Of a DNA stretch of 64,000 bases, positions 12,960 to 51,342 are shown piece after piece. The position numbers and the translations under genes are program-made. The stretch is taken from positions 1,026 to 65,025 of the forward strand of contig JAQTQE010000007.1 in the NCBI GenBank assembly GCA_028712365.1, in the 5' to 3' direction. The notes beneath the pieces are model-generated. The model did not search any database, was not told where the DNA came from, and saw only the letters and a list, made by a program, of their open reading frames with translations. The number at the start of each line of letters is the position of its first letter. The stretch's first letter is position 1. The DNA comes from a bacterium (GTDB lineage: Bacteria > CAYTYR01 > UBA6262).

Positions 12960-13083
12960 TTAAAATACTAATTTCTAATATCGAATTCCTAAACAAATCA
13001 AAAATACTAAATTCTAATTTCCTAAACGTTTAGAAATTTGACCTTGTTTAGGATTCAGATATTAGTGCTTAGAATTTGCTTTT
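12960..13083. repeat. AT-rich palindromic intergenic repeat, family B, core (G)TTTAGGATT(C)AGATATTAG with CCTAAA(T) arms.
   Basis: ...TAATTTCCTAAACGTTTAGAAATTTGACCTTGTTTAGGATTCAGATATTAGTGCTTAGAATTTG... It lies between murI and queD. Confidence 0.55.
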
Positions 13084-13887
13084 TTAGTATTTCTCAATAT
13101 CGATCTGGGTGGCTTGTTGTATCTTTTCACCCAGCAGCTGCTGTCCGACCGTAATAAATTTATCCGGTATGTCACTGACATAGAACAGGCAATTACCTAT
13201 GCCTTTGGTCACTGCTTGCTCTTTGTTTTCCAGGATCTGCTGGACTTCCAGCGCTGCTTCCTGGGCAGAATCAACGAGTTTCACTTTTTTGCCCATTACC
13301 TGCCCGATTATTTTTTTCAGCAAGGGATAATGGGTACAGCCTAAGATAAGAGTGTCTATGCCTACCCTTTTTAGCCCGGAAAGATATTCCGCGGCGATCA
13401 GCGAGGTCACTTTTTTATGGACCCATCCTTCTTCCACCAGCGGCACAAATAAAGGACAGGCTTGCCCATATACTTGCACATCAGAGGCTTTACTTGTCAG
13501 TAAACGGTTGTAGGCCTGGCTGGAAATTGTAGCCATGGTGCCGGCTACGCCAACTTTTTTACTTTTTGTCGCCTTTAAAGCGGCTTTTACTCCCGGTTCG
13601 ATCACGCCAATGATCGGCAGGCCAGGAAAGCTTTCCTGTAGAGTGGGCAGACTTAAAGCTGATGCCGTATTGCAGGCGACAACTAATAACTTTATGTCCT
13701 GTTGCAATAAAAACCGCACGTTTTGCAATGAGTATTTAGTCACGGTAGCTGCTGATTTATTCCCGTACGGCACCCGGGCCGTATCCCCGAAATAAATAAT
13801 GGTTTCGCGGGGCAAGAGCTTCATTAATTCCTTTACTACGGTCAACCCGCCGACGCCAGAGTCAAAAACGCCAATATTCTTAGGCAT
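13084..13887 (-). CDS. murI: Glutamate racemase.
   Basis: IGVFDSGVGGLTV and GCTHYP motifs are present. Start is taken at MPKNIGVFDSG. Confidence 0.85.
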   Translation of the reverse strand: MPKNIGVFDSGVGGLTVVKELMKLLPRETIIYFGDTARVPYGNKSAATVTKYSLQNVRFLLQQDIKLLVVACNTASALSLPTLQESFPGLPIIGVIEPGVKAALKATKSKKVGVAGTMATISSQAYNRLLTSKASDVQVYGQACPLFVPLVEEGWVHKKVTSLIAAEYLSGLKRVGIDTLILGCTHYPLLKKIIGQVMGKKVKLVDSAQEAALEVQQILENKEQAVTKGIGNCLFYVSDIPDKFITVGQQLLGEKIQQATQIDIEKY

Positions 13888-13888
13888 A

Positions 13889-15487
13889 TTATTCTTGTTC
13901 CTTTCGCTCGATATAATCCATGATCCCATTAAAGATCGTTTTCGCTATCTTATCATTAAAGCTGCCCTTGTTCAATAACCTTTCTTCGCGCTTATTGGAC
14001 AAGAAAGCGCATTCGACCAGCACTGCCGGCATTTTGGCCCCGCGCAGGACATAAAAACCAGCTTGTTTTACTCCCCGGTTGAGCAGGTCCACGTCCATTT
14101 CATTGACCCGTCCTACGACAAAGGAACACAATTCACTGGAATCATTGACAAATTCATTCAAGGTCAGTGACCACAGGATAGCTTTTAACTTATCAGTCAC
14201 GGCTGATCTATCTTCCAGATCAATGACCGAGTTTTCGATATTCGCTACTGCTTCAGCTTCCATATCCGTAGCCCGTTCACTTAAAAAATAGATCTCAAAC
14301 CCGCTGGCCTTACGGTCCAAGCCAGAGTTGCAGTGAATAGAGACAAATAGATCGGCTTTTTTAAGGTTGGCGATCTGGGTGCGTTCGGCTAAGGGTATGA
14401 ATTCGTCTTCTTTCCTGGTGAGAATGACCTGCAAATTAGTTTTTTCATGCAACAACTGGGCCAATTTAAAGGCCAGAGAGAGATTAACATCTTTTTCCTT
14501 GGTGCCATATTGCCCTATAGCGCCCGGGTCCTTACCGCCATGTCCGGGATCGATCACGATTGTTCTTATTTTAGCAGTATTGACTTTCTTTGGTGGTTCA
14601 GGTTTGGATCTTATCTCTGGCGTGACTACCGGTGGTGGAGACAATTCCGGGGTAACTGGCGGAGCTTTCACCACTGCTACGCTGGCTGGCTGTGTAGACG
14701 CGGATATTTCCGACTCTGGCGGACAAACCTGGGCCCCTGTCTTCTTGATATTAACCAATATACGCCAGGGATTATCAACAACTTTGACACTGTATTCGAA
14801 TTCCGGGCAAACCTCTATCACCCAAGATACTTTATTGCTTTTTTGGATCAGGTTCATATTGGTGACCAAGGCATTACCCGGCACCGTGTATTTCTTATCC
14901 TGGTCCAGCACCCCTTTATAGATATCTACTGTGATCTTATTAGCCGCTTCCAGGGATGTCTCATAATACAGTTTTTCCTGGGTCTCCAATATTAGCTGGC
15001 TGAGGCCTTCTTGCTGTTGCGTTTTCACTCCGGATATATTAGGGGTTTGGAATATTTTTAAGGTTTTGGTTGATTCATCGAATTTTATTCTCAGCCCGAC
15101 AGGTTTGGTAAAACCGCGGCTGATAATAAAACTAAGAGGAACGTAAAGGTCCCCTTTTTCCAAGCGGCAAACCGAGGTCATCTTGACCTTCTGTTCATTG
15201 ATCGTAGCGGTTCTGCCGAAATATGTCAATTCGATCCGCACGCCTTTGAGGGACAAGATCACTTTTTTACTGACCGGCAGCCATTTTATATCGGCAGCCA
15301 GGAAATCAGCCAAGTCACTGACATCGAGGAATTTTTCCTTATTTAGTTCGTATAGTTTAGCGTTTTCAGTGCGGGTTCCGTTATCAAGAGTGACTTTGAT
15401 CGATAGCGGTACAGGCTGCGCCTGTACCGGTGTAACAAACAATGAAGATAGCAATAGAAATAAAGGGATGGTAATTTTAGAATGCAA
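13889..15487 (-). CDS. N-acetylmuramoyl-L-alanine amidase (Amidase_3) with an N-terminal AMIN-like region.
   Basis: The Amidase_3 motif is IVIDPGHGGKDPGAIG...VSIHCNS...E.YF. The signal peptide is PLFLLLSSLFVTPVQA. A probable TTG start at 15487 sits behind AAGGAA. Confidence 0.75.
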   Translation of the reverse strand: MHSKITIPLFLLLSSLFVTPVQAQPVPLSIKVTLDNGTRTENAKLYELNKEKFLDVSDLADFLAADIKWLPVSKKVILSLKGVRIELTYFGRTATINEQKVKMTSVCRLEKGDLYVPLSFIISRGFTKPVGLRIKFDESTKTLKIFQTPNISGVKTQQQEGLSQLILETQEKLYYETSLEAANKITVDIYKGVLDQDKKYTVPGNALVTNMNLIQKSNKVSWVIEVCPEFEYSVKVVDNPWRILVNIKKTGAQVCPPESEISASTQPASVAVVKAPPVTPELSPPPVVTPEIRSKPEPPKKVNTAKIRTIVIDPGHGGKDPGAIGQYGTKEKDVNLSLAFKLAQLLHEKTNLQVILTRKEDEFIPLAERTQIANLKKADLFVSIHCNSGLDRKASGFEIYFLSERATDMEAEAVANIENSVIDLEDRSAVTDKLKAILWSLTLNEFVNDSSELCSFVVGRVNEMDVDLLNRGVKQAGFYVLRGAKMPAVLVECAFLSNKREERLLNKGSFNDKIAKTIFNGIMDYIERKEQE

Positions 15488-15533
15488 AACCCCGTTCCTT
15501 TCTAGGATAAATAGGAAATAATAATTGAGAATA

Positions 15534-15576
15534 GAAAATCGAAAATTGACCACAATCAAATCTCGATTTTCGATTG
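15534..15576. promoter_or_regulatory. Palindromic tandem-heptamer element upstream of the amidase gene.
   Basis: (GAAAATC)(GAAAAT)TGACCACAATCAAATCT(CGATTTT)(CGATT) is an inverted tandem repeat about 60 nt 5' of the amidase start. Confidence 0.25.
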
Positions 15577-15583
15577 TTCTAAA

Positions 15584-15600
15584 TTTTGCCAAGGGCAAAA
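15584..15600 (-). terminator. Probable rho-independent terminator in the ssrA 3' trailer.
   Basis: On the minus strand a perfect 7-bp hairpin (TTTTGCC CTT GGCAAAA) is followed by TTTAGAAC. Confidence 0.4.
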
Positions 15601-15743
15601 TATGGAGGTGCCGGGAATCCTCCTCACCCAGGCCGTATGCGCGGCCTTCCTTCGTCGCCGGCCAGTCTCGCTCGGACCAATGGCGCTCAACTTGGCTTCG
15701 ATTCCCTTAAGCAAGGGAGAAAATATGGAGGTGCCGGGAATCG
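15590..15743. repeat. About 30-bp direct repeat of the tmRNA 3' end. Copy 1 is at 15590-15619 and copy 2, the functional 3' end, is at 15712-15743. The repeats flank a GC-rich 92-bp stretch.
   Basis: AAGGG(C/AG)AAAATATGGAGGTGCCGGGAATC occurs twice. Only copy 2 continues into the T-arm (GAACCCGG). Confidence 0.7.
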
Positions 15744-16075
15744 AACCCGGGTCCCAAAATACGGTGTCGAGAACTTCTACAGGTTTAGTCTAGTAATTGA
15801 TTTCGCTGCTTCTGGCTCCACTAGATAGGATACAAAGGCAGCTATCCTTACTGATCTCACTTGACTCGCTAAGGAGTAACTCGTCAAGCCAGCCTACAGT
15901 TTTTGTACCTCTACCGCCCGTAGGCAGAGCAGGTAAAGATACTACGCCTTAACAGGCGTATGCGTACTGCGTGTTATAGTTAGCAGTTATAATTTGCTAG
16001 GTATTTAACGGCGACCCAACCATGCCGACCTGCCATCCAAGACCCCAAATATTCCGGTCGAAACCTTTCACCCCC
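15726..16075 (-). ncRNA. ssrA: tmRNA (SsrA), standard one-piece form.
   Basis: The minus strand begins GGGGGUGAAAGGUUUCGACCGG... at the 5' end. It ends ...GGACCCGGGUUCGAUUCCCGGCACCUCCA with a tRNA-like T-arm and acceptor, and CCA is not encoded. The gene lies immediately downstream of smpB. Confidence 0.8.
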
Positions 16076-16077
16076 AT

Positions 16078-16122
16078 CTGAAATACAAATTCTAAATCCT
16101 AAATTCGAAATTCTAAACAAAG
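16078..16122. repeat. Short family B copy.
   Basis: GAAATACAAATTCTAAATCCTAAATTCGAAATTCTAAACAAAG lies between the ssrA 5' end and the smpB stop. Confidence 0.4.
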
Positions 16123-16578
16123 TTATTTATGTTTTTCGCGAAAGGCTCTTTGCATTTCTCTCTGAGCATCCTTCTTTTTCAACTCGTCTCTCTTATCCCG
16201 TGCATTCCTGCCACGCGCCAGGGCCAATTTTACTTTCACATTTCCTTTACTGAAATATAATTCCAAAGGGACCAAAGTCAGCCCCTTTTCTTTGACTTTG
16301 CCCATTAGCTTTTTTATCTCTTTTTTATGCAAAAGCAATTTGCGTACCCGTAAAGCGTCACATTCTTCCAGGCGCGAATGTTCATATGGCGAAATATGCA
16401 TATTATAAAGAAAGACTTCTTCTTTATTGATACTGGCATGGGCATCGCCCATATTGATATGGCCGCCCCTGATCGACTTCACTTCATTGCCTTTTAGGAC
16501 AATACCAGCCTCAAAAGAATCCAGGATCTCGTAATTATGCAGGGCTTTACGGTTCGTAGAAATGTTTTTTCGTTCCAT
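16123..16578 (-). CDS. smpB: SsrA-binding protein.
   Basis: MERKNISTNRKALHNYEI...GNEVKSIRGGHINMGDAHA... is canonical SmpB. The ORF extension upstream of this Met is antisense to a tRNA. Confidence 0.9.
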   Translation of the reverse strand: MERKNISTNRKALHNYEILDSFEAGIVLKGNEVKSIRGGHINMGDAHASINKEEVFLYNMHISPYEHSRLEECDALRVRKLLLHKKEIKKLMGKVKEKGLTLVPLELYFSKGNVKVKLALARGRNARDKRDELKKKDAQREMQRAFREKHK

Positions 16579-16694
16579 CAAGGTAATATACCATAAAAAT
16601 CTACTATTTTCAAGTCTATCTTGACAGAACTGTGGATTTAAGGTATACTTTAAATACCCGCCAAGCAAGGATATAGGCGGGCCGATATTTATAT

Positions 16695-16781
16695 GGACGA
16701 GTGGCGGAATTGGCATACGCGTAGCGCTCAGGACGCTATGGTCGTTAGACCTTAAGGGTTCAACTCCCTTCTCGTCCACCA
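16695..16781 (+). tRNA. tRNA-Leu (anticodon CAG), type II with a long variable arm. CCA is encoded.
   Basis: GGACGAGTGGCGGAATTGGCATACGCGTAGCGCTCAGGACGCTA...GGTTCAACTCCCTTCTCGTCCACCA. The D-arm is near-identical to E. coli tRNA-Leu. The anticodon loop is CUCAGGA. Confidence 0.85.
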
Positions 16782-16854
16782 AATTTTCTCGAAAATTTGG
16801 TAGAGCAATCGAGAATCCCTGCCTGCCGGCAAGCAGGGAAATTAGAAAAACAAA

Positions 16855-16890
16855 AACCTCTGTTAGTATTCTTAACAGAGGTTTCTATTA
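16855..16890. terminator. Bidirectional rho-independent terminator.
   Basis: An 11-bp perfect stem (AACCTCTGTTA / TAACAGAGGTT) has an A-run (AAAAACAAAAA) before it and TTTCTATT after it. It would serve the plus-strand tRNA-Leu and the minus-strand gene 16920-17819. Confidence 0.6.
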
Positions 16891-16919
16891 TAACCGCACT
16901 ATCTTGAACTATTCTTATC

Positions 16920-17819
16920 TTAGAATTTCACGCCTAAACTGATCCTATGCGTATCGCTCAGTTCGCCATATGGCACCCAGGCATAGGACAGGTTGATCTT
17001 GTTGATATTAAATCCTAATCCCGCGCTTACTCCTGCTAATCCGTCCAGTTTATCATCTTTACCCGCTTTGTATCCCAGGTCCAGCACCAGGGCATTGATC
17101 ACCTTGTATTCCATTCCTACGCCAATGGTCATTTTGGAATCATAGTAGTTGAGATCACTGGTCAGGTTGATCTTGGACAGGCTGTAGTTGATACCGGCCG
17201 CCAGGGTTAAAGGCAGGTCATATCCTTCGCTGATGAATTTCATCTGCGGCCCCAGGTTGCGTAAGGCTATACCGACATTTAAGTTGTCTATGCTGGTCTT
17301 GACCAATGCGCCCAGGTCCACAGCCATTCCGGTAGTGCTTTCATCATCGATCTTCTGGTTGATGACCTTGATACTGGCGCCTAAGGCAACCTTTTCATTT
17401 ATTTTCTTGGCCAGGGCTAAAGTCCCACAGGTATCAGTGGCGCTAAAAGTACCTAATTTTTCCCGGGTCTCGGACCGCTTCTCCATCTCCCCGGATTGCA
17501 GCATAACGATACTGCCGCCAAGAACTAAACCACTAGAGAAAGGTTGGGCATAGCTGGCAAATTCATAGTTCATATCAGCCAGCCAACTGGCATACATCGC
17601 GGATAATTCTTTCTCTTGCAGAAAGCCTAATCCTCCTGGATTCCAGTTGACGGCGTTGACATCATCGGCCAATCCCACATAATTGCCGCCCAGGGCAGAA
17701 GGCCTGGCCCCGGCGCCGATCTTTAAAAACGCCGCGCCCGTAGAAGCTGCCCAGACCGCGCTGGTTAGAATTAAGATTAAGCTGCTGCTTATTAGCGCCA
17801 CTTTCAACTTCCGTTTCAT
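16920..17819 (-). CDS. PorV/PorQ-family outer-membrane beta-barrel protein (T9SS-associated).
   Basis: It has a signal peptide. FLKIGAGARPSALGGNYVGLADDVNAVNWNPGGLG is the hallmark N-terminal motif of the PorV/PorQ/UPF0164 family. A C-terminal ...LGVKF closes the beta-barrel. Confidence 0.55.
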   Translation of the reverse strand: MKRKLKVALISSSLILILTSAVWAASTGAAFLKIGAGARPSALGGNYVGLADDVNAVNWNPGGLGFLQEKELSAMYASWLADMNYEFASYAQPFSSGLVLGGSIVMLQSGEMEKRSETREKLGTFSATDTCGTLALAKKINEKVALGASIKVINQKIDDESTTGMAVDLGALVKTSIDNLNVGIALRNLGPQMKFISEGYDLPLTLAAGINYSLSKINLTSDLNYYDSKMTIGVGMEYKVINALVLDLGYKAGKDDKLDGLAGVSAGLGFNINKINLSYAWVPYGELSDTHRISLGVKF

Positions 17820-17849
17820 TTCTTCCTCCTGATCTTTATTATAATTATA

Positions 17850-20800
17850 TTATTTCAGTATCGCGAATTTCTTAGTTATCTTGAGCTTATCCGAACCTCT
17901 GGTCGCCACGATCCGCGCGATGTATACTCCACTGGCCTGTCCGGATGTATCCCATTGGTATTCATATGCATACTGGCCGTTAATGATAGTCGGAGTATCG
18001 GTAATCTCAAAGCTGTCCTGCAGGTCACCGGCGACATCATAGATGTATACTTCTACCTTGTCTGCTTCTCCCACTTCCACATGGATCACCGGTTGTTGGC
18101 TTTCCTTAGCCGGATTCGGATACACATAAGTCTCTCCTTCAACAAAGTCAGTGCTGGGCGCGTAACCCAGGGCCGCTGCTGCCATCGTGGTCGGTGAGAA
18201 TTTGAGCGCTACCCCGTTGCTGATGCTGGCGGTAGGATACGTTACTCCAGCGGTGCCGGTCGGATTCTCGATCCCGATCACCGTGGTCAGGTCTTTGGTC
18301 ACTGACTGGTATTGGTATACGATCACGCCGGTCTTGTAGATGATCACCTGGAAAGTTTGCTTGTTGGTGTTGGCGTAGTTATAGACGCTCCAGGTTACCA
18401 CAAACTTATCGCTATAGCTGCCATAAGTTATGGCACTGCCGGATTTGGCCGGATTGAGGTCCCGCCAGTAGGCGGCTAAGAGCGCGTTCGGCTGGTAACT
18501 GCTCGGTATGGTGACTGGTGAATAAGCGGTGCTATTGGAGACAAAGCTCATAAAGCCGTTGCCGCAAACATAGACTGAACTATAGCTGACGCCGTAGAAG
18601 CTGACCGTGAAAGGCAAGGTGAACAGCTTGCTCTGGTCATCCAGGGTAATGCCGGTCGTAGTGCTGGTGGTGATCCAGCTGTATGGCGTCGTGTTTACCG
18701 TATAAGTCGGCGCGTTACCTACCTGGATCAGGATCCCGTTGCTGGCCGCGGTATAGCTGCCATACAAGGTGGCTCCGTTACGGGCACGTACTCGCGCGTA
18801 GTAGGTTAACCCGTTGGTGCAGCCGCTGATGGCCTTGGTGACTACATTGCCAACATACTCATTGTAGGCAAAGGTACTGAATGATGTATTGGTGGATACT
18901 TGCAAAGTATACCCACTGATCCCGCTTTCCGCGTCGACGGCAGTGCCTGCGGTCCAGTTAAAGGTAAGGCTGGTGGAGGTGGAGGTTGTTCCGGCATCGG
19001 TCGGAACTGATGGCAAACCTGTCGGGGCAGTGGTATCGATCTTGATCCCGTTGCTGCTGCCACTGTATGTGCCGTACAAGCCGCCGCCGTTCTTGGCCCG
19101 GATCCGCGCATAATATGTCTGGCCCTGGGTGCAACCAGTGATGGTCTTGGTCAGAACATTCCCGGTATCACTGTTAAAGATGGAAGTAGCAAAAGTAGAA
19201 CTGGTGGAAACTTGCAGGGCATACCCGGCTATACCGCTTTCCGCGTCTGCCGCGGTACCTATCGTCCAGTTGAATACCAAGGTCGTGCTGGTGCTATATA
19301 CTCCGGCATCGGTCGGTACAGTGGGCGTACCGGTAGGAGCGGTTGTGTCCGCGGTCTGCACCAGTATACCATTACTGGCGCCTGAAAAACTGCCATATAA
19401 TCCAACGCCATTCTTGGCCCGGACGCGGGCATAATAAGTCAATCCATTAGTGCAGCCAGAAATAGACTTGGTCAGCACAGTGCTTACATCTCCATTGAAG
19501 ATAAAGGTGCTGAACGCGGTGCTGGTTGATACTTGCAGGTAGTAGCCATTTAAGCCTGATTCCGGATCAGCGGCGGTACCGGCAGTCCAGTTAAAAGTTA
19601 AAGTAGTACTACTTGAAGCAGTCCCCGCATCCGTTGGTACGGATGGTGTACCCGTGGGTGGAGTAGTATCCGTCGCTACCGGTACTTCATCATAAGAAAC
19701 TTCGTCTACATAAAAAGTAATGGGACTGGAGATGCCGGTATTGCGTGACGCTTCGATGAAAAAGTACCATACTCCATTTATGGAGCTGAGATTTAATCCA
19801 GCCAGGTCAATGGTAATCGGCTGCCAGGCAGTAGTTAAAGTGAAGGCAGACTCTTTCTTGGCAGTATCAGTAGCTTGACCCGTACCAAAGGTGACTACTA
19901 CGCCGTTAACTGAAGATTTTGCCAGGAAGGTCAGGCGTTTATTGCCGGTTAAGTTAATGCCTGCTCCATTCCAGTTCCCGGAGTACAAACTATAAATACC
20001 AGCCCAAGTCTCTGCTGAGGGATTATAAGTGAATTTTGTGCTGGTGCTGCCGCTATACTTCTCGCCGGTAAAAGCCGGATCACAAGTCAAGCTTGCTCCG
20101 TTATTGGATCCCATCCAGCCGGTAAGACCGTTCAGCCAGCTAGTGTCCCAATACATGCGATATGGGAACGTGCCTGTACCGCCGCTGTCTGAATGGTCAT
20201 AGGCAATAGTCATATCATTAAGATAAGGAGTAACTGCGGTATTGGTAGTGGCCAGGAAAGCCCTGACGCGCAGGTCAGACCCGGATGAAGGGAAAGTATA
20301 TTTTGTACCAGGGGTAATATCACGCCAGCTGCTACCACCATCATTACTCAAACGGAAAGTGAGACTCTGGCCGTTCAAGGTAGCGTTATAGGTTAAGGTA
20401 GCTGCTGTTATGTTAGTAGTAGCAATATCTATGGCCGTAGTCTCGGCAAAGGAACTAGTAACATATGATGTCCCTGCTGAGAACAAAGCCAGGTCACCGG
20501 ACCAAGCCCTGGTCCCGGCAGACAATATCTTATTGGCATACAGGTTACTGTTAGACATCCAGACGCCAAACAATCCGCCGGCTCCATCAGTGGCAATTTC
20601 AGCTCCGCTTTGGTCAATGAAATCAGTCTGGCAAATCTGGACACCGCCAGACGTCCATTGCGTGGCGTCAGTAGAACTAAGCTTTTGTCCGCGTAATGTA
20701 TAGTCATAACCGCTGCCAGTATCATAACGATCACGGAAAACGATATATTTATTTCCTGAGTAATCCGTGGCTATGTCTGCCAGCTCTTTTTGCAGGTACA

Positions 20801-21725
20801 TGGCCCCTGTATTGGAGATCTGGATCGGGCCAGCCAGCCTGGTACCGCTGGAATTATATTTTTCATAATATACCGTATAATTAACATTGTAAACAGCGCA
20901 AACATAACCCAAGGCATCTACTGCTATTTCTACTTGCCCCGGAGAGCCAACATCTACTGTCCAAAGGGTATTGCCACTGGCATCGATCCTGGTAATAGCG
21001 CCGTTAACGCTGGCAGTATAGGTATAGCCAACATTACTGGCAATAGCCGGGTCATTACCATTATTATACTTATCGCCCCAGAGCTTGTTGCCATTGATAT
21101 CAAACTTGGACATAAATGAGCCGGTCCCCTGGGGGCCATACCGCTGATAGATCACATATATATTATTACTATTGTCAACTGCCAGGTCATGCAGGCACCA
21201 TTCCGCTGAATAAGCCGCGGAATCAGCTTGCCGGTCCCATTGATAGTCCCCATTGGAATTGTATTTTAAAAGCCTCAGGTTACCAGTACTGACCGCGTAA
21301 GATACATATATATTACTACTGCTGTCACAGGCTACTCTTGGCGCCTGATCCCAGACACCATCCAACAGCACTGACTGGTTCAGTTTCTTATCTCCCCAGA
21401 TTTTGGTCCCGCTGGTATTGTACTTGGCGCCATAGACATCAATAGCCCCGTTACGGCTGTCTATCCAGACCATGATCATGTTGCCGGAGGCATCACGCGT
21501 TATGTGCATGCTCTTCTGGGTATAGCTGGCTGTGCTGGTGGTCGGCAAAGAAACTTGGCCGGTGGCAGTGTTCCATACCGCGGTGGTATTGGATGCTTTG
21601 TAGGTTGTACTAGTGAAGGTTTCGGTAAAACTGGTGGTGGTAGCTAGAGCCGCCTGCCCATAGCAGAGACAGGAAAAAATAGCTATGACCCTTACTGCAG
21701 ACTTAAGAATGGTACTCAACTTCAT
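17850..21725 (-). CDS. Giant secreted T9SS cargo protein (1291 aa) with beta-propeller-like repeats, three tandem fibronectin-III-like repeats and a C-terminal Por sorting domain.
   Basis: The signal is LCYGQAALA. Three ~97-aa repeats (PTG.PSVPTDAG...LTFNWT.GTA.D.ESG..GY.LQVST...GCT.G.TYYARVRA.NG.GLYG) show up as ~290-bp DNA repeats at about 18840-19700. The C-terminus is YVYPNPAKES...GVYIARIVATRGSDKLKITKKFAILK. Confidence 0.7.
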   Translation of the reverse strand: MKLSTILKSAVRVIAIFSCLCYGQAALATTTSFTETFTSTTYKASNTTAVWNTATGQVSLPTTSTASYTQKSMHITRDASGNMIMVWIDSRNGAIDVYGAKYNTSGTKIWGDKKLNQSVLLDGVWDQAPRVACDSSSNIYVSYAVSTGNLRLLKYNSNGDYQWDRQADSAAYSAEWCLHDLAVDNSNNIYVIYQRYGPQGTGSFMSKFDINGNKLWGDKYNNGNDPAIASNVGYTYTASVNGAITRIDASGNTLWTVDVGSPGQVEIAVDALGYVCAVYNVNYTVYYEKYNSSGTRLAGPIQISNTGAMYLQKELADIATDYSGNKYIVFRDRYDTGSGYDYTLRGQKLSSTDATQWTSGGVQICQTDFIDQSGAEIATDGAGGLFGVWMSNSNLYANKILSAGTRAWSGDLALFSAGTSYVTSSFAETTAIDIATTNITAATLTYNATLNGQSLTFRLSNDGGSSWRDITPGTKYTFPSSGSDLRVRAFLATTNTAVTPYLNDMTIAYDHSDSGGTGTFPYRMYWDTSWLNGLTGWMGSNNGASLTCDPAFTGEKYSGSTSTKFTYNPSAETWAGIYSLYSGNWNGAGINLTGNKRLTFLAKSSVNGVVVTFGTGQATDTAKKESAFTLTTAWQPITIDLAGLNLSSINGVWYFFIEASRNTGISSPITFYVDEVSYDEVPVATDTTPPTGTPSVPTDAGTASSSTTLTFNWTAGTAADPESGLNGYYLQVSTSTAFSTFIFNGDVSTVLTKSISGCTNGLTYYARVRAKNGVGLYGSFSGASNGILVQTADTTAPTGTPTVPTDAGVYSTSTTLVFNWTIGTAADAESGIAGYALQVSTSSTFATSIFNSDTGNVLTKTITGCTQGQTYYARIRAKNGGGLYGTYSGSSNGIKIDTTAPTGLPSVPTDAGTTSTSTSLTFNWTAGTAVDAESGISGYTLQVSTNTSFSTFAYNEYVGNVVTKAISGCTNGLTYYARVRARNGATLYGSYTAASNGILIQVGNAPTYTVNTTPYSWITTSTTTGITLDDQSKLFTLPFTVSFYGVSYSSVYVCGNGFMSFVSNSTAYSPVTIPSSYQPNALLAAYWRDLNPAKSGSAITYGSYSDKFVVTWSVYNYANTNKQTFQVIIYKTGVIVYQYQSVTKDLTTVIGIENPTGTAGVTYPTASISNGVALKFSPTTMAAAALGYAPSTDFVEGETYVYPNPAKESQQPVIHVEVGEADKVEVYIYDVAGDLQDSFEITDTPTIINGQYAYEYQWDTSGQASGVYIARIVATRGSDKLKITKKFAILK

Positions 21726-21989
21726 TGTTGCCCCCTAAAAAAAATATAGTCCCCCGCTTCAGTGTTTGAAAATGCTATCAAATTGATACAATCATGCTCG
21801 TATCACTTTGATCATACTTCCACACACGTCAACGGAGCACTATTTTAGGTTACCAACAATGCTTAATGAGCACCCGAGATTGGCGTCTTTTGTTTTGTTT
21901 TTTGGAGTCAGCACTAAATATAACAGTTATATTCGTTTTGTCAAGCGGTATTTTTTTAAGAACGACGATTACACGGATTCCTGATCTTC

Positions 21990-23507
21990 TTACTTAATTG
22001 CTTCCTGCTTCAGGATCTTCCAAGTCCCTTGTTCCTTCTTGAAAGTCAGGATCAATTCCCCTGCACTGATCGTGTCCAGGATCTTCAATTCCCGGAATAT
22101 GCCATCGATCTTATACGTGTAGGTAAGCGTAGCGGAATCAGGACCGGCAAAGACTATCGGGTTGCTAATAGCGTATATTCTTTTAATATCATCATATTGC
22201 CGGAAAATATCGTTGATCCGGAGTTTATAAGTCTCAAAATCAATGCTTTTAACGGTAGGATCATCAATGACGCATTCAGTACTGTACGCGACCATATAAT
22301 CATCAATACTCTTGGTCTTTTCAGCTTGTTTGAGCTTTTCCAGGATCTCTGTAATAGCCTTGGTGTTTTTCCTTTGTTCTTCCTCACTGAGCGCGACCGC
22401 GGCCAAGCGGGCCGGTTGGTCAATATTACTACGGATAAAAGTCTGGTTATTATCCCGGCTGACCTCTTGCAATGCTTTATCTCTATCCAGTATGCCCACT
22501 ATCCTCATCCGTTTAGCCGTCGCGCCAAAAGTATAACTGACTTCATTGTTATAAGAGCCCTGGCTGGGTATTTTGGGTATATCTTCATAGAGCCGGCTGG
22601 TTTCTTTGTTATCTTCCAATACCAGCAATTCCAATATACAGGGCGTGCTAGCTCCCAGCCCGATATTAGCTATGGTATATTTTATCTTGTTCACCGTGCC
22701 GGCTACGGGCGGCATGGCGGCCAGTTCCATTTTAGCCAGGGTTAGGTCCGGCAAAATCGATTCAACCGTAAAAGTGGTTGCTTTTTCATTATTAGTGCTG
22801 TTAATTTCACCCAGAGCGCTGTCCCGGTTGATCACAACTTTGATCGTATGCTCCCCCGGCTGGGTAAAGACATACTTAATAGCTGTGTCCCTATTCTCTT
22901 TCACCGGCAAATAGACTTCATAACTTATATCCTGCGTTTCCCTGCCGTCAATGAAAAATTTCAGGTTGCAGGGAGAGAGCCGTCCTTCATCAGCGCTCCA
23001 TACCGGCCGAAAGGTGATAGTCTCACCGGTTTCATATAATTGTTTTAACGGTTCAAGCTCAAGTCGAACGATCCGGAAGTCAGGTTTTTTTTCAGGTATT
23101 ATCGTAAAGGATGCGGTCTGGACTACCGGCAGGATGGTTTTCAGCTTGATCTCCACGCTTCCATTCATTGCTTTAACAGCGTTAGGGGTATAAGCTAATT
23201 CAAATACTTTCTTTTCTCCGGCGGCCAATGGCGATAATAAAAACTCTTTGTATAATTTACGGTATCCAGTGGTCCGGGGCTTTCCTTCTTCAATAACCAC
23301 GGTAACCATTTCCGCGGATACAGGCAATGATCCGGGATTCCTGACACTAAAATTGATCAGTACTTCTTTATTGCTTACTAAGGGTTGAACCGCGGAAAAA
23401 CCGATACCTTCTATAACCAGGGCAGGACCGGCCTGTTCAGCAAATGCCGAACAGGAAATAAGGACGCATAATAATGATAAATATAATATTTTTCTGGTCC
23501 TGTCCAT
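21990..23507 (-). CDS. Secreted hypothetical protein with repeated CARDB-like beta-sandwich domains and an NTF2/SnoaL-like C-terminal domain.
   Basis: It has a signal peptide with a Cys (LISCSAFA). The architecture is repetitive. I did not recognise a catalytic motif. Confidence 0.45.
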   Translation of the reverse strand: MDRTRKILYLSLLCVLISCSAFAEQAGPALVIEGIGFSAVQPLVSNKEVLINFSVRNPGSLPVSAEMVTVVIEEGKPRTTGYRKLYKEFLLSPLAAGEKKVFELAYTPNAVKAMNGSVEIKLKTILPVVQTASFTIIPEKKPDFRIVRLELEPLKQLYETGETITFRPVWSADEGRLSPCNLKFFIDGRETQDISYEVYLPVKENRDTAIKYVFTQPGEHTIKVVINRDSALGEINSTNNEKATTFTVESILPDLTLAKMELAAMPPVAGTVNKIKYTIANIGLGASTPCILELLVLEDNKETSRLYEDIPKIPSQGSYNNEVSYTFGATAKRMRIVGILDRDKALQEVSRDNNQTFIRSNIDQPARLAAVALSEEEQRKNTKAITEILEKLKQAEKTKSIDDYMVAYSTECVIDDPTVKSIDFETYKLRINDIFRQYDDIKRIYAISNPIVFAGPDSATLTYTYKIDGIFRELKILDTISAGELILTFKKEQGTWKILKQEAIK

Positions 23508-23531
23508 ATATAACCCGGCCTAGAGAAAATT

Positions 23532-23557
23532 AGGGGACATAATTTTATATGTCCCCT
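23532..23557 (-). terminator. Hairpin terminator downstream of the small membrane ORF.
   Basis: A 10-bp perfect stem (AGGGGACATA aattt TATGTCCCCT) is followed on the minus strand by AATTTTCTCT. Confidence 0.4.
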
Positions 23558-23584
23558 AGTCGATCGGAAAAAACAACAAGCTGA

Positions 23585-23773
23585 CTATTTTTGTACCTTG
23601 GTCATTTCCATTAACGAAAGAGCAATGGAAAAAGCCAAAGAACAAATTGTGAATTGGCCATATGCCTTGACCGAAAATCCCAATAATTCCGATCCCTTCA
23701 TAGCTGCGGCCACCATGGATGTAACAAACCCGACAAAAGCTAGAAAAATGAATATTTCAGACCAACGTCTCAT
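23585..23773 (-). CDS. Small two-TM membrane protein (62 aa), hypothetical.
   Basis: There are two hydrophobic helices and a downstream hairpin. It is the last ORF of the tol-pal run. Coding status is uncertain. Confidence 0.3.
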   Translation of the reverse strand: MRRWSEIFIFLAFVGFVTSMVAAAMKGSELLGFSVKAYGQFTICSLAFSIALSLMEMTKVQK

Positions 23774-23796
23774 TTCTTCACCCCCTTGCTGTTATT

Positions 23797-23895
23797 TGGG
23801 TATTAGGTTAGGAAATAAGTTTGGTTTAAGGTCTCTGGGTGTTAGGCTCCAAACCACAAACCTCAGACTTACTTCCATACCTACTTCTACAACTA
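23797..23895. repeat. Intergenic palindromic repeat, family A, core TACTTCCATACCTACTTC[TC]ACAAC. Copy 1.
   Basis: It is an imperfect inverted repeat whose right arm reads ...CAGACTTACTTCCATACCTACTTCTACAAC. It lies immediately 3' of tolR. Confidence 0.6.
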
Positions 23896-23969
23896 TTAAC
23901 CTTTCTTCAGTTTTCACGAATTCTTAAGAATATATATAGCAAAAAATACATTATTTTGTAAAGCTCTTT

Positions 23970-24377
23970 CTATGGTTTTTCCGGTTCCGTGGCGATAGCC
24001 AGTTTTTCCACTCCGCTTTTTTTCGCGACGTCCATAGCCTGGACAACCACCCCATGCAGTACCGCCCGGTCCGCTTTTATGATCAAAGCAGTATCTTTAC
24101 GGGTGGAATATTCTGCTTTCAATTCCTGGGGTAAAGTAGCCAGATACACTTTTTTTTCATTAAGATAGAACTGGTTATCCTTGGTAATGGTCAACACCAG
24201 CTGTTTTTCCGGATGGGGATCGCTTGTGGCCGCTTTTGGCAGTTTTACTCCTATGGCCTGTGGTAAACCAAAGCTGGCCCCGATCATAAAAAAGATGACC
24301 AGGTTAAAGATAACATCAGTCATCGGGGTTGGGTCCAGCCGCTCTATCAGGCGATGATGTCTTCGCTTAAACTTCAT
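23970..24377 (-). CDS. tolR: Biopolymer transport protein ExbD/TolR.
   Basis: It has a single TM (VIFNLVIFFMIGASF) followed by a periplasmic ExbD fold. Confidence 0.85.
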   Translation of the reverse strand: MKFKRRHHRLIERLDPTPMTDVIFNLVIFFMIGASFGLPQAIGVKLPKAATSDPHPEKQLVLTITKDNQFYLNEKKVYLATLPQELKAEYSTRKDTALIIKADRAVLHGVVVQAMDVAKKSGVEKLAIATEPEKP

Positions 24378-24394
24378 AATGCCCTCATGTCCTT

Positions 24395-25042
24395 CTAATC
24401 TTTTTCCCTGGTCACTATACCTACCAACTCAGCCGATCCTTTTTCTATTCCCAGTACAAAATTATCTACCTTGGAAATAAAATAATTATACGCTACCACT
24501 GTGGGGATCGCGATGAAAAGGCCGTAAGCAGTGGTTATCAGGGCTTCACTCACTCCACTGGCGACAACCTGGGGAGTAGTGACATTGGCCGAGGCAATGG
24601 CATTAAAAGCGGCGATCATCCCGGTTACCGTGCCGGTAAAACCAAGCAAAGTAGAAACACTGGCTAAAGTGGACAAAGGAGATAAAAACTTTTCTAACCG
24701 GGGAATAGCATCCAGCCCCGCTTCTTCCATGGCTTCTTCCATAGCTACCCGGCCATGCTCTTTATCTTTTAGGCCAGCGGCCAGGACAAAGGCCACCGGA
24801 CCGGGAGTCTTTTCGCAGAGGGAGATCGCCTCAGCGACCCGGTCCGCATAAACCATTTTTTTTAGCTCCGCCATAAAACCGGCCAGATCGGTTTTAATCC
24901 GGTGATAATAAAAGAACCTTTCGATGATGATCGCGGCCGATAATATGGAACACATTAACAGCGGCCACATCATTATTCCGCCCTTGGCAAAATACTCCAG
25001 CACGATTTTCTCCTTTTTTTCGCTTTTACTCTCAACTACCAA
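24395..25042 (-). CDS. tolQ: MotA/TolQ/ExbB proton-channel protein.
   Basis: It shows the three-TM topology and the conserved C-terminal helices (LGFTGTVTGMIAAFNAIA...). Confidence 0.85.
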   Translation of the reverse strand: MVVESKSEKKEKIVLEYFAKGGIMMWPLLMCSILSAAIIIERFFYYHRIKTDLAGFMAELKKMVYADRVAEAISLCEKTPGPVAFVLAAGLKDKEHGRVAMEEAMEEAGLDAIPRLEKFLSPLSTLASVSTLLGFTGTVTGMIAAFNAIASANVTTPQVVASGVSEALITTAYGLFIAIPTVVAYNYFISKVDNFVLGIEKGSAELVGIVTREKD

Positions 25043-25085
25043 CTACGAGCCCCGCTGCAAATCGGGGCGGACTATGAACCGGTTC

Positions 25086-26387: not shown

Positions 26388-26388
26388 G

Positions 26389-27072: not shown

Positions 27073-27078
27073 TATATC

Positions 27079-27816: not shown

Positions 27817-27822
27817 ATTCGC

Positions 27823-28383: not shown

Positions 28384-28425
28384 AACTTACCTCCTTATTT
28401 GTTCTATCTTACATTATACAACCGT

Positions 28426-36665: not shown

Positions 36666-36687
36666 ATATTCCTTGTTGAGGAGCTGT

Positions 36688-36797
36688 TATTAGGTATAAG
36701 TTTTGGAAGTAAGTTTAGTCATAGGTCTTAGGAAGTTTGGCTTAAAACCTTAAAACCTACTTCCTACTTCCATACCTACTTCCACAACCTTCACCCT
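36688..36797. repeat. Family A palindromic repeat, copy 3.
   Basis: The left arm GGTATAAGTTTTGGAAGTAAGTTTAGTCATAGGTCTTAGGAAGT pairs with the right arm ACCTACTTCCTACTTCCATACCTACTTCCACAACC. It lies between the hydrolase and panC. Confidence 0.65.
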
Positions 36798-36798
36798 A

Positions 36799-40544: not shown

Positions 40545-40656
40545 AAACCCCTCTTGAAATACAATTTTGAATTTTGAGTGTTGAGTTTTGAATTATGGAA
40601 AAAGATTTTACCTTAACTTAAAACTTAAAACTCAAAACTTATAACTGCTTTTAAAA
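40545..40656. repeat. AT-rich palindromic repeat, a TTTTGAA variant.
   Basis: The inverted pair is TTTTGAATTTTGAGTGTTGAGTTTTGAA and TTAAAACTTAAAACTCAAAACTTATAA. It lies between dapL and the small membrane ORF. Confidence 0.45.
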
Positions 40657-40908: not shown

Positions 40909-41047
40909 ATATTAACACAAATTCTAAGCACTAATATCTAAACCTTAAACAATTTCAAAACTCCAAATCCTAATTTCTAAACGTTTTACATTTTAAGATA
41001 GATTTTGTCTAGGATTTCGATATTCGAATTTAGGATTTGCTCCAAAA
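40909..41047. repeat. Family B palindromic repeat copy.
   Basis: ...CCAAATCCTAATTTCTAAACGTTTTAC...GTCTAGGATTTCGATATTCGAATTTAGGATTTG. It lies between the small membrane ORF and the HEAT gene. Confidence 0.55.
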
Positions 41048-45646: not shown

Positions 45647-45728
45647 TTTCTTCCTCCTACCTTTCATAAACTATCTCTATTACGATCAACCACGAACGAC
45701 CAACTACGAACGTCTCTTGCTCTTTCTA

Positions 45729-48928: not shown

Positions 48929-49866
48929 TGCAGTTTATCCCAGACTTTATTCAAGATCACTTTCTTAATCTGTTTGACCTTGGCCCGGGTCGCTATGATG
49001 CCGGCGTCAACACATTCCACGCCGCGGTTCAACTCAGACACGGTAATATTTTTCACGTCCGGACTGATCACCAGGTCAGCTAATTTAAGCTGTTCCTGGG
49101 CTAAAAAATTTCCCCGGATATAGATCACCTGGCTCAAAATTAAAAGAGCGTTATTGGTTTTCGCTATCCCTACTTCCGCGGTCACATCTACCGCTATAAT
49201 GATATCCGCGCCCATGAGTTTGGCAACATCCGCCGGGACATTATCGATGATCCCGCCATCCATCAGCAAGCGATGCCGGTATTCTACCGGCTGGAACAAG
49301 CCAGGCATAGTTGAACTGGCGCGCACCGCAGGCGCGACCTGGCCTTCCTTCAGGATGATCTTTTCCCCGTTGCGTATATCTACAGCCACGCAGGCAAACG
49401 GTATTTTCAATTCATCAAAACGTTTATTCCCGATATACTTAGAAACGTATTCTTCCATTCTTTTGGTAGAATACAGGCCGACCGGAGAGATCTTGAAGCT
49501 TACCAGCTTATTCCAGGTCATATTCTGCGCCATGTCCACGATCGTATCAGCCGGCACGCCAGCGGCATACAATGAACCGATCAAAGCCCCGACACTGGTG
49601 CCGACAATTATATCTACCGGTAAAAGTTCTTCGGCAAACACCTGGACGACCCCGGCATGGGCCAACCCCCGGGCTCCGCCGCCCCCCAGTACCAACGCTA
49701 CTTTAGGTTTTTCCGCTGCCGGTAAAGATAGATATTTTTGCCAGAAAAAATCGATCAGTAATTCTTCTTCGTCAATAGTACCGGCGGTAGCCGGCGCTGT
49801 CGGGACCCAAAGAATAAAACCGAGTAATAAATAAACAAAAAGTTTTTTAATTGTGAACTGGACCAT
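48925..49866 (-). CDS. Patatin-like phospholipase.
   Basis: The oxyanion hole GGGARG, the nucleophile GTSVGA and a DGG dyad are present. Confidence 0.8.
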   Translation of the reverse strand: MVQFTIKKLFVYLLLGFILWVPTAPATAGTIDEEELLIDFFWQKYLSLPAAEKPKVALVLGGGGARGLAHAGVVQVFAEELLPVDIIVGTSVGALIGSLYAAGVPADTIVDMAQNMTWNKLVSFKISPVGLYSTKRMEEYVSKYIGNKRFDELKIPFACVAVDIRNGEKIILKEGQVAPAVRASSTMPGLFQPVEYRHRLLMDGGIIDNVPADVAKLMGADIIIAVDVTAEVGIAKTNNALLILSQVIYIRGNFLAQEQLKLADLVISPDVKNITVSELNRGVECVDAGIIATRAKVKQIKKVILNKVWDKLQ

Positions 49867-51342
49867 TTATTTGTTTCCCAGAGCCAATCCCGTGGCCACA
49901 TTCAATTCCTGTTCGCCTATGGTATACTCATAGGAATTATCCAAAGCCTGGATCCTGGTTTCTATGACTCTTTTCTGTATCGCCAGCAGGTCTGTGCAGG
50001 ATAGCTGGTCATTTTTGTAATAATTCAGCGCTGAATCCAAGGCCTTCTGCGCCAAGTCATTATTTTTGGACATTTCTTCCAGGTTTTTCCCGGCACGAAT
50101 ATATCGCCGGTAGCTTTCTTCTATGTTCATTTTCAGGTCATCACTGATCCGCACCTTCAGCAAATTGGTGGATTTCAACTCACTACGCATCTGCCTGACT
50201 CTCGCCCAGCTCAACCAGCCGTTGAACAACGGGTAATGCAATGCCACCGTAGCGGTCCAGTTCCTGCCCTCCAGCTCCGAATTTAATCCGCTGCGTTCAT
50301 AATCCGCGCCCAGCACGATAGTCGGATAACGCTCACTAAAAGCCTGGCTGATCTTATGGTTAATCTTTTTTTCTTCCAAAGAAAGTCCTTGCAGGACCGG
50401 CGACCGGTCAATGGCCAGGGCAATATAGGTATTCAAGCCCTGGCACTCTTCTCCAGGGATCACTGTTTTAAAATCACCGACCAGCTTTACCTGCGAGTCC
50501 AATTCAAATCCGACCGCCTTATTAAAGGCCGTATAAACCAGTTGGAGCTTTTCTTCTTCAGCCGCTATTTGCATCTCCCACCGGGAGCATTCGATCGTCA
50601 AGAGAGTGATCTCATAATCCTTCGCTTTGTTTTTGCTTTTAGCTGTTTCCAGATAAGTCTTAACCTGGGCCAAGGCTTCCCGGCTAAATTCCAGCGCCTG
50701 CTGCTGGTAGAGAACGCTATAAAACCTCTGGGTCACTTCCAGGTAAACTTTCCGCTTGGTTGTTTCATATGCCTTATTAGTGATATCGAGATCTTTTTTC
50801 GCGATATTAAGCTGGTTAATAAGATAGCCGCCGGTAAATAAAGACTGGCTGACAGAGATCCTGGCCGCGTAGTGATTGCTGACTCCCACTGCCAAACTGG
50901 ATCCGCCCAAGCTAGGCGGCAACGTGGTAGGCGTACCCACGTTCAAGCGGGTATAAGCGCCAGTCAGGTTGATCTTGGGGAAAAAATAAGAATCAGCTTC
51001 TTCAATTTTCTGCTCGGCAATATATTTTTTTTCTGAGGCTTCCAATAACTCCTGGTTGTTGGTCATAGCCCATTTAATGCTGTCTTCCAGGGTTAGTATC
51101 TTTTCCGGCTGTTCCAGCGCCCAAGAGGCAGTGCCCCAATATAATAAGCATAATAATAAAAGTATTTTTTTAACGAACCCAAGAGTTGTATTAGATTTTG
51201 AGAACCGAGACGTAAAAGTGCGATATTTTCCCGCATAAAAAATTGTGAGCATACTCACAGGAGTATGTAAGCAATTTTTTAGAAAGGAAAATGAAGCAAT
51301 ATTACGTCGAATTCCTAAATCTAACGCAATTTTTGGGTTCAA
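49867..51342 (-). CDS. TolC-family outer-membrane efflux protein.
   Basis: Two OEP repeats and coiled-coil helices are present. The signal peptide (ILLLLCLLYWGTASWA) lies about 60 aa inside the ORF. The start could be the ATG overlapping the argH stop (ATGA) or the internal Met at about 51252. Confidence 0.65.
   Translation of the reverse strand: MNPKIALDLGIRRNIASFSFLKNCLHTPVSMLTIFYAGKYRTFTSRFSKSNTTLGFVKKILLLLCLLYWGTASWALEQPEKILTLEDSIKWAMTNNQELLEASEKKYIAEQKIEEADSYFFPKINLTGAYTRLNVGTPTTLPPSLGGSSLAVGVSNHYAARISVSQSLFTGGYLINQLNIAKKDLDITNKAYETTKRKVYLEVTQRFYSVLYQQQALEFSREALAQVKTYLETAKSKNKAKDYEITLLTIECSRWEMQIAAEEEKLQLVYTAFNKAVGFELDSQVKLVGDFKTVIPGEECQGLNTYIALAIDRSPVLQGLSLEEKKINHKISQAFSERYPTIVLGADYERSGLNSELEGRNWTATVALHYPLFNGWLSWARVRQMRSELKSTNLLKVRISDDLKMNIEESYRRYIRAGKNLEEMSKNNDLAQKALDSALNYYKNDQLSCTDLLAIQKRVIETRIQALDNSYEYTIGEQELNVATGLALGNK

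Follow-up and report, generated by a model that had tools for sequence, protein, structure and literature searches.

Why are several spacers between the genes of a single bacterial contig filled by long AT-rich palindromes that resemble one another? The question is raised by a stretch of 64,000 nucleotides (nt) from a bacterium of the GTDB lineage CAYTYR01; UBA6262 (assembly GCA_028712365.1, contig JAQTQE010000007.1, positions 1,026 to 65,025 of the forward strand), referred to here as the window. A sequence-only reading had singled out in it a dispersed palindromic element, family B, and had taken it for a non-autonomous element that is, or recently was, active. We find that family B is a sequence-specific element present in very distant lineages. 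It is probably the short form, without an open reading frame (ORF), of an intervening-sequence (IVS)-type element made of inverted arrays of 7-nt units (heptads), whose long form encloses a gene of the PF05635 family.

Copies, anatomy and distribution of family B

Family B is represented in the window by the following copies:

12960-13083, minus strand: E1, full element, between the stop of murI (glutamate racemase, 13084-13086) and the PTPS/queD start near 12951; arms 12963-13021 and 13029-13077, found by arm motif and arm model
16087-16123, minus strand: E2, lone arm reading TTGTTTAGAATTTCGAATTTAGGATTTAGAATTTG on the minus strand (arm model E = 7.6e-07), in the smpB-ssrA spacer (16078-16122), between the smpB stop at 16123 and the 5' end of the tmRNA (ssrA) at 16075
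31225-31367, minus strand: E3, full element, between a response-regulator stop at 31366 and the uvrA start at 31224; arms 31238-31297 and 31308-31367
40909-41047, minus strand: E4, full but degraded element, between the stop of a HEAT-repeat protein at 41048 and the start of a small membrane ORF near 40897; arms 40919-40976 and 40995-41038

A 22-nt arm motif, TTGTTTAGGATTYRGATATTAG, matched the window six times with up to three mismatches, at both arms of E1, E3 and E4, as compared with 0.01 matches in shuffled sequence. A hidden Markov model (HMM) trained on 112 arms detected exactly seven arms, namely these six and 16087-16123. The palindromes originally listed at 12960-13083, 31225-31365 and 40909-41047 are therefore full elements by motif and HMM, and a copy does lie in the gap between ssrA and smpB, but the entry at 16078-16122 is a single arm that forms no hairpin (fold z = -0.42). 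The supposed partial member at 51290-51338 does not belong to the family: the HMM did not detect it, its fold has z = -1.35, and it is part of a different inverted repeat at 51175-51340. The core strings reported to be shared by the copies are real and correspond to the right-hand arms, the left arm being their imperfect reverse complement (arms of 41-49 nt, 73-76% complementary). Compared with shuffled sequences, the RNA folds of E1 (-33.1 kcal/mol, z = -5.95) and E3 (-38.9 kcal/mol, z = -5.3) are strong, and that of E4 (z = -1.2) is a degraded hairpin. Direct reading shows a 22-nt exact match between the left arm of E4 and the reverse complement of the right arm of E1. Recent activity cannot be claimed, because E1, E3 and E4 are only 66-75% identical to one another. 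The sequence of E3 is the same in two independent metagenome assemblies. Each window copy occupies exactly the interval between one gene's stop codon and the following gene's ribosome-binding site, and the spacers concerned have 24-28% GC in a window of about 46%. Nearly all genes of the window are on the minus strand, so every copy is intergenic between co-directional genes, as the sequence-only reading had noticed in part; none lies between the convergent genes that it had also mentioned.

An alignment of 56 copies, together with position counts, shows a discrete element of about 135 nt composed of two inverted arrays of about nine degenerate heptads per half, CTAAAYY-type on the left and RRTTT[A/C]G-type on the right, with fixed ends (AAATYCTAA on the left, TTAGRATTT on the right). 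The right half runs [..TTTTGAA][..TTTGAAT] TTGTTTAG GATTTAG ATATTAG GATTTAG GATTT, with its complement as the left half. The outer arm comprises five heptads, and the boundary is sharp, 34 nt outside the TTGTTTAG anchor. The TT and the final G of the heptad are retained in about 95-100% of copies, even in the arm on which the pattern search did not rely, and variation is concentrated in the first three positions (GAT, AAT, ATA, TGC, GGT) and in the A or C preceding the G (TTAG or TTCG). Conservation is thus periodic at 7 nt in both arms, although it is too degenerate for a strict lag-7 detector, which in the window is passed by 40563-40646 and 54193-54271; no arrays were found at any other lag. 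As 7 is not divisible by 3 and TAA or TAG is present in all units, each full copy closes all six frames, with two to seven stop codons in every one. When 70 copies were aligned at their ends, we found no target-site duplication, direct repeat, conserved flank or target motif outside them.

Family B is not confined to this window. One genome per species was searched with a degenerate 22-nt pattern of the arm, which gave at least 120 loci, nearly all of them carrying the family B element. In the loci fetched, which total 1.03 Mb, the HMM counted 92 full elements and 85 halves (L-numbers such as L052 or L139 denote these loci or contigs, used for comparison). The carriers are metagenome-assembled genomes (MAGs) labelled as at least 15 phyla, plus one archaeon. 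The labels comprise Patescibacteria (many classes of the candidate phyla radiation, CPR), Planctomycetota, Omnitrophota, Nitrospirota, Nitrospinota, Desulfobacterota, Gammaproteobacteria, Chloroflexota, Elusimicrobia, WOR-3, Latescibacterota, Saganbacteria, Bacteroidota, Bdellovibrio and others. The window itself comes from an Elusimicrobia-related MAG. The element is also present on some IMG/VR contigs, while BLAST returned no match in isolate plasmids or GenBank phages. The best cross-phylum pairs of copies are 0.82-0.85 identical. The suspicion that these could be generic AT-rich hairpins with no conservation elsewhere is not borne out, because the same element recurs outside the window in many phyla, and the idea of a dispersed, sequence-specific, non-autonomous family, with copies present or absent between close relatives, was right in spirit. 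Full elements occupy 55 co-directional, 10 convergent and 5 divergent spacers, which is near background (76/12/12%), and lone arms show no preference for transcription strand (27 vs 28). The median distance from element ends is 17 nt to stop codons and 19 nt to starts. Matching the heptad strings against sequences in the literature returned only unrelated primers.

Two peculiar arrangements were seen among the fetched loci. In L103, two inverted copies about 2.2 kb apart (4146-4314 and 6510-6678) have family B outer arms around a GTCAGYN/GCTGANN heptad palindrome, another nesting of one heptad family inside another. Many of the lone right halves (single-arm matches in L028, L033, L045, L057, L062, L064 and L094) have a short GC-rich hairpin running into the GTTTTGA… inner arm, and resemble an intrinsic terminator fused to a half element.

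A gene-bearing form and the PF05635 link

Clustering of 959 neighbouring ORFs from about 136 loci gave no transposase recurring near the elements. Apart from generic ABC ATPases, the only recurrent neighbours belong to PF05635/TIGR02436, the 23S rRNA intervening-sequence or four-helix-bundle protein, whose nearest solved structure is 2rld. Family B arms stand on both sides of a 120-amino-acid PF05635 gene at four loci (L052, L073, L253 and L263). The unit of L253, a groundwater bacterium, is in the cheA-cheB spacer, and that of L263, a MAG of a Methanophagales (ANME-1) archaeon, is between two glutamate-synthase-like genes; both loci had been fetched as homologues of the L052-type protein and turned out to be flanked by family B. 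In L052 and L073 the left outer arm stops right before the ATG, the first codons (ATGACAGAAATACAAAATTCAAAACAG) are the inner-left arm itself, and the inner-right and outer-right arms follow the stop codon. The body of the ORF is placed between CAAAAC...GTTTTG, the innermost stem of the short form. E1, E3 and E4 align with the joined arms of the gene-bearing units over 109-128 nt (z = 11-18). The four proteins form one subfamily, with L073 61% and the other two 73-74% identical to L052, while PF05635 proteins accompanied by other heptads are 29-43% identical to it. The closest homologues of the L052-type protein number in the thousands, at 70-89% identity, in very different organisms.

The association extends beyond family B. 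PF05635 genes in the MAG loci L030, L070 and L102 are flanked by other heptads, and heptamer arrays were present in the flanks of all six plasmid PF05635 genes from the cultured Nostoc, Anabaena, Planktothrix, Chondrinema and Bernardetia, for example GTCGGAG x4 / CGACCTC x5 in N. punctiforme and ATTCAAA x4 / TTTTGAA x4 in N. flagelliforme. These plasmid genes are wedged into operons (RND adaptor|permease, cas2|cas1, DrmD|MmeI, KASIII|hydrolase). In 50 kb of the N. punctiforme plasmid pNPUN01, five of six lag-7 arrays lie within 60 nt of two PF05635 genes, and there are no arrays at lags 5, 6 or 8-11. Viral contigs provided 16 distinct PF05635 genes as an independent sample: lag 7 was the best flank periodicity (at least 0.8) in 12, and the upstream and downstream flanks were inverted with respect to each other at z >= 4 in 11. 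Inverted heptamer arrays, we conclude, are a general feature of the flanks of PF05635 genes. A further feature of pNPUN01 (L228, 21763-25051) is that two four-helix-bundle genes, one with GGGTGTA and the other with GTCGGAG arrays, bracket an integrase-XisH-XisI group near Tn7-like transposition genes.

A second palindrome of the window takes part in this association:

40545-40656, minus strand: TTTTGAR/YTCAAAA heptad palindrome, a sister of family B and not a member, between a small ORF stop at 40657 and an aminotransferase start at 40542

Its strict lag-7 arrays are at 40563-40591 and 40614-40646 (fold z = -3.9), and the family B inner arms are made of the same heptad. It aligns over 96 nt (z = 8.5) with the flanks of the PF05635 gene of L238, which bear the same TTTTGAA/TTTTGAG arrays, and over 62 nt (z = 5.4) with those of a PF05635 gene of Nostoc flagelliforme. 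Described earlier as a variant of family B, it is related in architecture only. The view that the window contains two unrelated palindrome families has to be abandoned: the families share one construction, inverted 7-nt arrays, and for both family B and the TTTTGAR element there are counterparts elsewhere with a PF05635 gene inside.

The closest known system is the IVS of rRNA genes. In Coxiella, the terminal inverted repeats of the 23S rRNA IVS form a 28-bp stem, which RNase III cuts. The IVS also has an S23p (PF05635) ORF and, just upstream of the ORF, two to three tandem GACAGAT heptamers whose number varies by strain; its sporadic distribution suggests horizontal transfer, and its origin and mobility are unexplained (PMC4990558). 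This remark on Coxiella was the only link between heptamer arrays and PF05635 genes that we found in the literature, where PF05635 ORFs have also been reported in CPR rRNA insertions and inside cas loci. Family B resembles the rRNA IVSs of Coxiella burnetii and Leptospira in having inverted repeats that could pair as a long stem, a full form whose loop contains a PF05635 gene, and tandem heptamers just before the ORF, and both occur sporadically and have short forms that lack the ORF (Salmonella and others for the IVSs). It differs in that its copies lie between protein genes or before ssrA and not in rRNA helices 25 or 45, in that its arms are long arrays of about nine heptads with a consensus shared by many phyla, and in that its cleavage by RNase III is only supposed and its pairing bears no sign of selection. 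Rfam found no rRNA gene in the window, and an rRNA motif search of all fetched loci gave a single 16S motif, in L116, whose position relative to the elements was not compared.

If family B is an ORF-less IVS-type element, as we think probable, the short form would correspond to the long form minus the gene body between the innermost CAAAAC...GTTTTG repeat. The unit would move between very distant lineages and lodge in transcribed spacers, beginning right after a stop codon and ending shortly ahead of the ribosome-binding site that follows, leaving the genes undisrupted. By analogy with the rRNA IVSs of Coxiella, Leptospira and Salmonella, a long imperfect stem may form from the arms once transcribed and be cut by RNase III, which would split a polycistronic RNA harmlessly between cistrons. 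The heptads, in turn, would be read by a sequence-specific factor; protein subfamilies and arm families go hand in hand, which makes the pentameric PF05635 protein encoded by the element the obvious candidate. PF05635 is reportedly also the family of the accessory proteins (Avd) of diversity-generating retroelements; Avd is a basic pentamer that binds nucleic acid and reverse transcriptase. The likeness is one of Pfam family; no reverse transcriptase or template/variable repeats were seen beside the PF05635 genes studied here, which are solitary and wedged between unrelated operon genes. A bolder proposal, which we put forward tentatively and which may well prove wrong, is that arrays and PF05635 genes make up one unrecognised class of mobile intervening elements crossing the bacterial-archaeal divide, in which the pentamer would read the heptads of its own arms and the ORF-less copies would ride in trans.

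Pairing, conservation and rival explanations

Several observations weigh against these proposals. The gene-bearing family B units seen are only four; no window copy has a PF05635 gene and there is none in the 64 kb, nor in the relatives' contigs L139 and L219-L221 (L230-L233 were left out of that scan). The census is a lower bound in which one arm per match was ascertained by the search pattern, and the phylum labels are the names that submitters gave to MAGs. Median identity is 0.73 among copies of one genome and 0.69 across phyla, which is odd for multiplication within genomes. The most direct difficulty concerns the stem. Arm complementarity is 0.66 within elements and 0.68 between them; the TTAG/TTCG states of paired heptads are independent between arms, with no covariation; chimeric hairpins joining the left of one copy to the right of another fold at -33.8 kcal/mol vs -32.1 for native ones; RNAalifold on 56 copies returned zero pairs; and G·U mismatches on the sense strand are not favoured (82 vs 103 A·C). 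The absence of detectable selection for pairing weakens the RNase III stem as a selected feature. What is conserved is the heptad sequence rather than base pairing, and the potential to form a hairpin arises because two opposed arrays use the same type of heptad, without being itself visibly selected. After these tests we dropped a conserved structured RNA as an explanation. Rfam had no family for the element at gathering score in the window and has no model for family B; at the E-value threshold it gave only chance matches to miRNA hairpins, at five loci with elements.

Comparison with relatives shows how labile these spacers are. The sequence-only reading had proposed to look in related strains for copies that interrupt genes; what the relatives revealed was presence and absence in spacers. 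L139, syntenic with the window (87% amino acid and about 75% nt identity), has spacers of 6, 24 and 19 nt in place of E4, the TTTTGAR palindrome and a palindrome of family A, respectively. At the murI-queD junction, L231 has an orthologous E1 and L230 an 8-nt empty site, both with 94% MurI identity. Between the response regulator and uvrA, E3 is present in L219 (94% UvrA identity) and is replaced by a palindrome of ACGAATA units in L220 (90%). Between smpB and ssrA, the heptad palindrome found in L221/L230, that in L231 and that in L232 all differ from one another and from the window, and the site is empty in L233. Single copies can nonetheless be strongly conserved. The E3 spacer of the window is identical to that of L219 at 134 of 141 nt (95%), with four of the seven changes within the 131-nt element proper, while the genes flanking it are 85.5% identical and their four-fold-type third codon positions 58-63%. 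The right half of E1 and a GTTGATC-type palindrome in the queD-queC spacer are likewise conserved above neutral sites. Spacers therefore gain, lose and swap heptad elements, and individual copies may be kept.

The E1 ortholog of L231 also holds a nested 45-nt GC-rich insert. It is a copy, sitting in the left arm, of a GC-rich palindrome of the repetitive extragenic palindromic (REP) type (…gatcccgataaatcgggatc…, with flanking C/G runs) that recurs in the clade, at about 54560-54615 in the window, in L221, at 4322-4366 in L231 and at 3694-3776 in L232, so that two small elements are nested here, the one within the other.

A host function would account for the high conservation of E3 just as well as a selfish element would. 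Family B could accordingly be a host-beneficial cis element under selection, acting in intercistronic RNA processing, stability or insulation or as a set of sites for a heptad-reading host protein, with the PF05635 link secondary. We judge this unlikely. In its favour, E3 is 95% identical where synonymous-type sites are about 60%, the E1 right half and the GTTGATC palindrome behave alike, conservation depends on position within the heptad, and the smpB|ssrA, RR|uvrA (response regulator) and tolB|exbB junctions are repeatedly filled by some heptad palindrome in different relatives. Such a role would leave unexplained why close relatives manage with 4-24 nt spacers at the same junctions, why half elements are unbiased in strand and full elements, found in every type of spacer, follow the background frequencies, and why a near-identical consensus appears in at least 15 phyla and an archaeon, which points to horizontal spread and not to lineage-specific regulation. 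Other candidates of a regulatory or recombinational nature were rejected. The arms contain no -35/-10 pair at proper spacing (examined by eye), and promoter-like matches were limited to two weak ones (9 of 12) touching E2 and the edge of E3, with none at E1 and E4 outside the scanned stretch. Proteins that bind repeats in a 7-nt register (HutP-like UAG-N4, TRAP, and CsrA with GGA) are not supported either: the UAG is often UCG or UUG, the GGA is unconserved and there is no strand bias. Integron attC sites would require RYYYAAC/GTTRRRY boxes, which are lacking, and the neighbours are housekeeping genes.

A classical MITE (miniature inverted-repeat transposable element), that is, a deletion derivative of an insertion sequence moved in trans by a transposase that recognises the terminal inverted repeats, seems improbable. 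Like MITEs (ERIC, Correia, RUP, Nezha) and the REPIN/REP elements with their associated tyrosine transposases (RAYTs), family B is about 100-150 nt long, hairpin-capable, extragenic, dispersed and strain-variable, and the small AT-rich intergenic copies with terminal inverted repeats, sharp ends and presence or absence between relatives would suit a MITE well. MITEs, however, have target-site duplications and a transposase-bearing parent. In family B the 70 copies aligned at their ends lacked both a duplication and a conserved target motif, the neighbouring ORFs at about 136 loci included no recurrent transposase family, and the sole longer version with the same ends encodes PF05635, which is not known to be a transposase. 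Genome-specific bursts or subfamilies were not found either. REPs, for their part, are GC-rich sequences of 20-40 nt with a GTAG/CGTC tag, specific to a species and its RAYT, whereas family B has 24-28% GC, other ends and at least 15 phylum labels. No Y1 (RAYT) gene is in the window or beside elements, and the one Y1_Tnp seen, in L232, is flanked by GC-rich hairpins and not by heptads. The comparison with MITEs and REPs suggested by the sequence-only reading thus yielded no target-site duplication, transposase parent, genome-specific subfamily or pairing selection; its observation was largely right, and its interpretation as a non-autonomous family is partly supported.

Many bacterial genomes have more heptameric repeats than expected (Rehm 2015, PMC4692102), and arrays might be microsatellites made in place by polymerase slippage or template switching, with no common origin or movement. 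Many unrelated heptads do occupy equivalent spacers in relatives, and array lengths vary. Xanthomonas has 70-75 convergent pairs of GGGAATC repeats per genome, and Nostoc has GGGGAYT repeats (PMC4692102). As in these and in the cyanobacterial short tandemly repeated repetitive (STRR) sequences, the units of family B are tandem, 7 nt long and intergenic, in convergent array pairs capable of forming a stem-loop. Those arrays, however, repeat a single heptamer almost perfectly and are regarded as microsatellites specific to a species, while family B has a fixed length, fixed ends, ordered non-identical heptads, distinct inner and outer arms and 69-85% identity across phyla, and six pattern matches stand against 0.01 expected by chance. 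Slippage is thus contradicted for family B, for which we consider it very improbable, and it could still explain some simpler arrays. Rehm (2015, PMC4692102) draws no link to PF05635, and the link between heptamers and PF05635 is direct here. TAACTGA repeats of Beggiatoaceae, cyanobacteria and Bacteroidetes offer another parallel; they lie a few nt upstream of starts, including those of essential genes, are proposed sites of a translational regulator (MacGregor 2015, PMC4679880), and cross phyla without a known transfer mechanism or an identified associated gene (PMC4679880). They share with family B the heptamer units and the cross-phylum spread, but their arrays are direct and not inverted.

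Finally, the reading of family B as generic AT-rich bidirectional transcription terminators is hardly credible and is contradicted as an explanation: hairpin potential, location after stop codons and mildly T-rich 3' flanks speak for it, but the copies have 24-28% GC, no terminator-like site occurs at E1, E2 or E3 (scan of 12000-31999, with E4 outside), copies also sit in divergent spacers and inside spacers of operons that are tight in relatives, and the sequence is conserved across phyla.

Other palindromes of the window and implications

Further palindromes and arrays of the window are as follows:

12529-12579: GTTGATC/GTTCGTA-type heptad palindrome in the queD-queC spacer
45668-45728: GTTGATC/GTTCGTA-type heptad palindrome
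32146-32278, 36666-36798 and 52713-52815: a further palindrome family with GGAAGTAGG/CCTACTTCC-type units, probably the "family A" of the sequence-only reading
51175-51340: nested inverted repeat in the spacer between argH and an outer-membrane-efflux gene, with 48-nt arms (51209-51256/51261-51308) inside 24-nt arms (51175-51198/51317-51340)
54190-54440: spacers of tRNA-Leu, tRNA-Lys and tRNA-Arg, with heptamer arrays GCTGAAA/GCTAAAT/GCTGGAT and inverted partners

The palindrome at 12529-12579 is orthologous to palindromes of 105-109 nt in L230 and L231, is identical to that of L230 at 50 of 51 nt, and looks like an internal-deletion remnant. Among the family A copies, 36666-36798 is the one absent from L139 and 32146-32278 is about 45 nt shorter in L219; the similarity of this family (GGAAGTAGG) to the GTGAAGT arrays at the PF05635 gene of L102 is not significant (z = 1.4-2.6). 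In the tRNA spacers, 54193-54222 and 54240-54271 pass the strict lag-7 detector. The repeat at 51175-51340 is not built of heptads, and the start listed at 51342 for the adjacent 491-amino-acid ORF is probably too far upstream. The tmRNA at 15723-16075 encodes the tag ANYNTQYAYAC, with a Cys end instead of the usual hydrophobic or Ala-Ala one, and L221 has the same coding string; a short palindrome, AATCGAAAATCGA / TCGATTTTCGATT, lies immediately downstream of ssrA at 15530-15575. A tRNA-Leu(CAG) gene (16695-16781, plus strand) overlaps the long-form smpB ORF (16123-16782, minus strand), a call that is an artefact because the SmpB domain begins at about 16602. Canonical GC-rich terminators occur at 23558-23531 and 16889-16849.

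Bacterial genomes are known to contain an excess of heptamer repeats, and rRNA intervening sequences have been on record for about 35 years, but to our knowledge there is no agreed origin, function or means of spread for either; likewise, we know of no role assigned to the very large PF05635 "four helix bundle protein" family outside diversity-generating retroelements. The evidence that starts from this window suggests that heptamer arrays and PF05635 genes are parts of one unit, whose short form of about 135 nt is common to CPR bacteria, Planctomycetota, Nitrospirota, Desulfobacterota, Omnitrophota, Elusimicrobia and others and whose long form, with a protein more than 70% identical to that of L052, is found in an ANME-1 archaeon. 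If this is true, a single idea would unite rRNA IVSs, cyanobacterial STRR repeats, the GGGAATC pairs of Xanthomonas, Beggiatoa-type heptamer repeats and the stray "IVP" genes in cas and other operons. Expanded AT-rich spacers and small genes lodged within operons, which are a common nuisance when MAGs are annotated, would find an explanation as well. Above all, it would provide a testable handle on the origin, function and spread of these sequences, in the form of a specific pairing between protein and DNA or RNA, for which Nostoc punctiforme, with the same arrangement, would be a tractable host.

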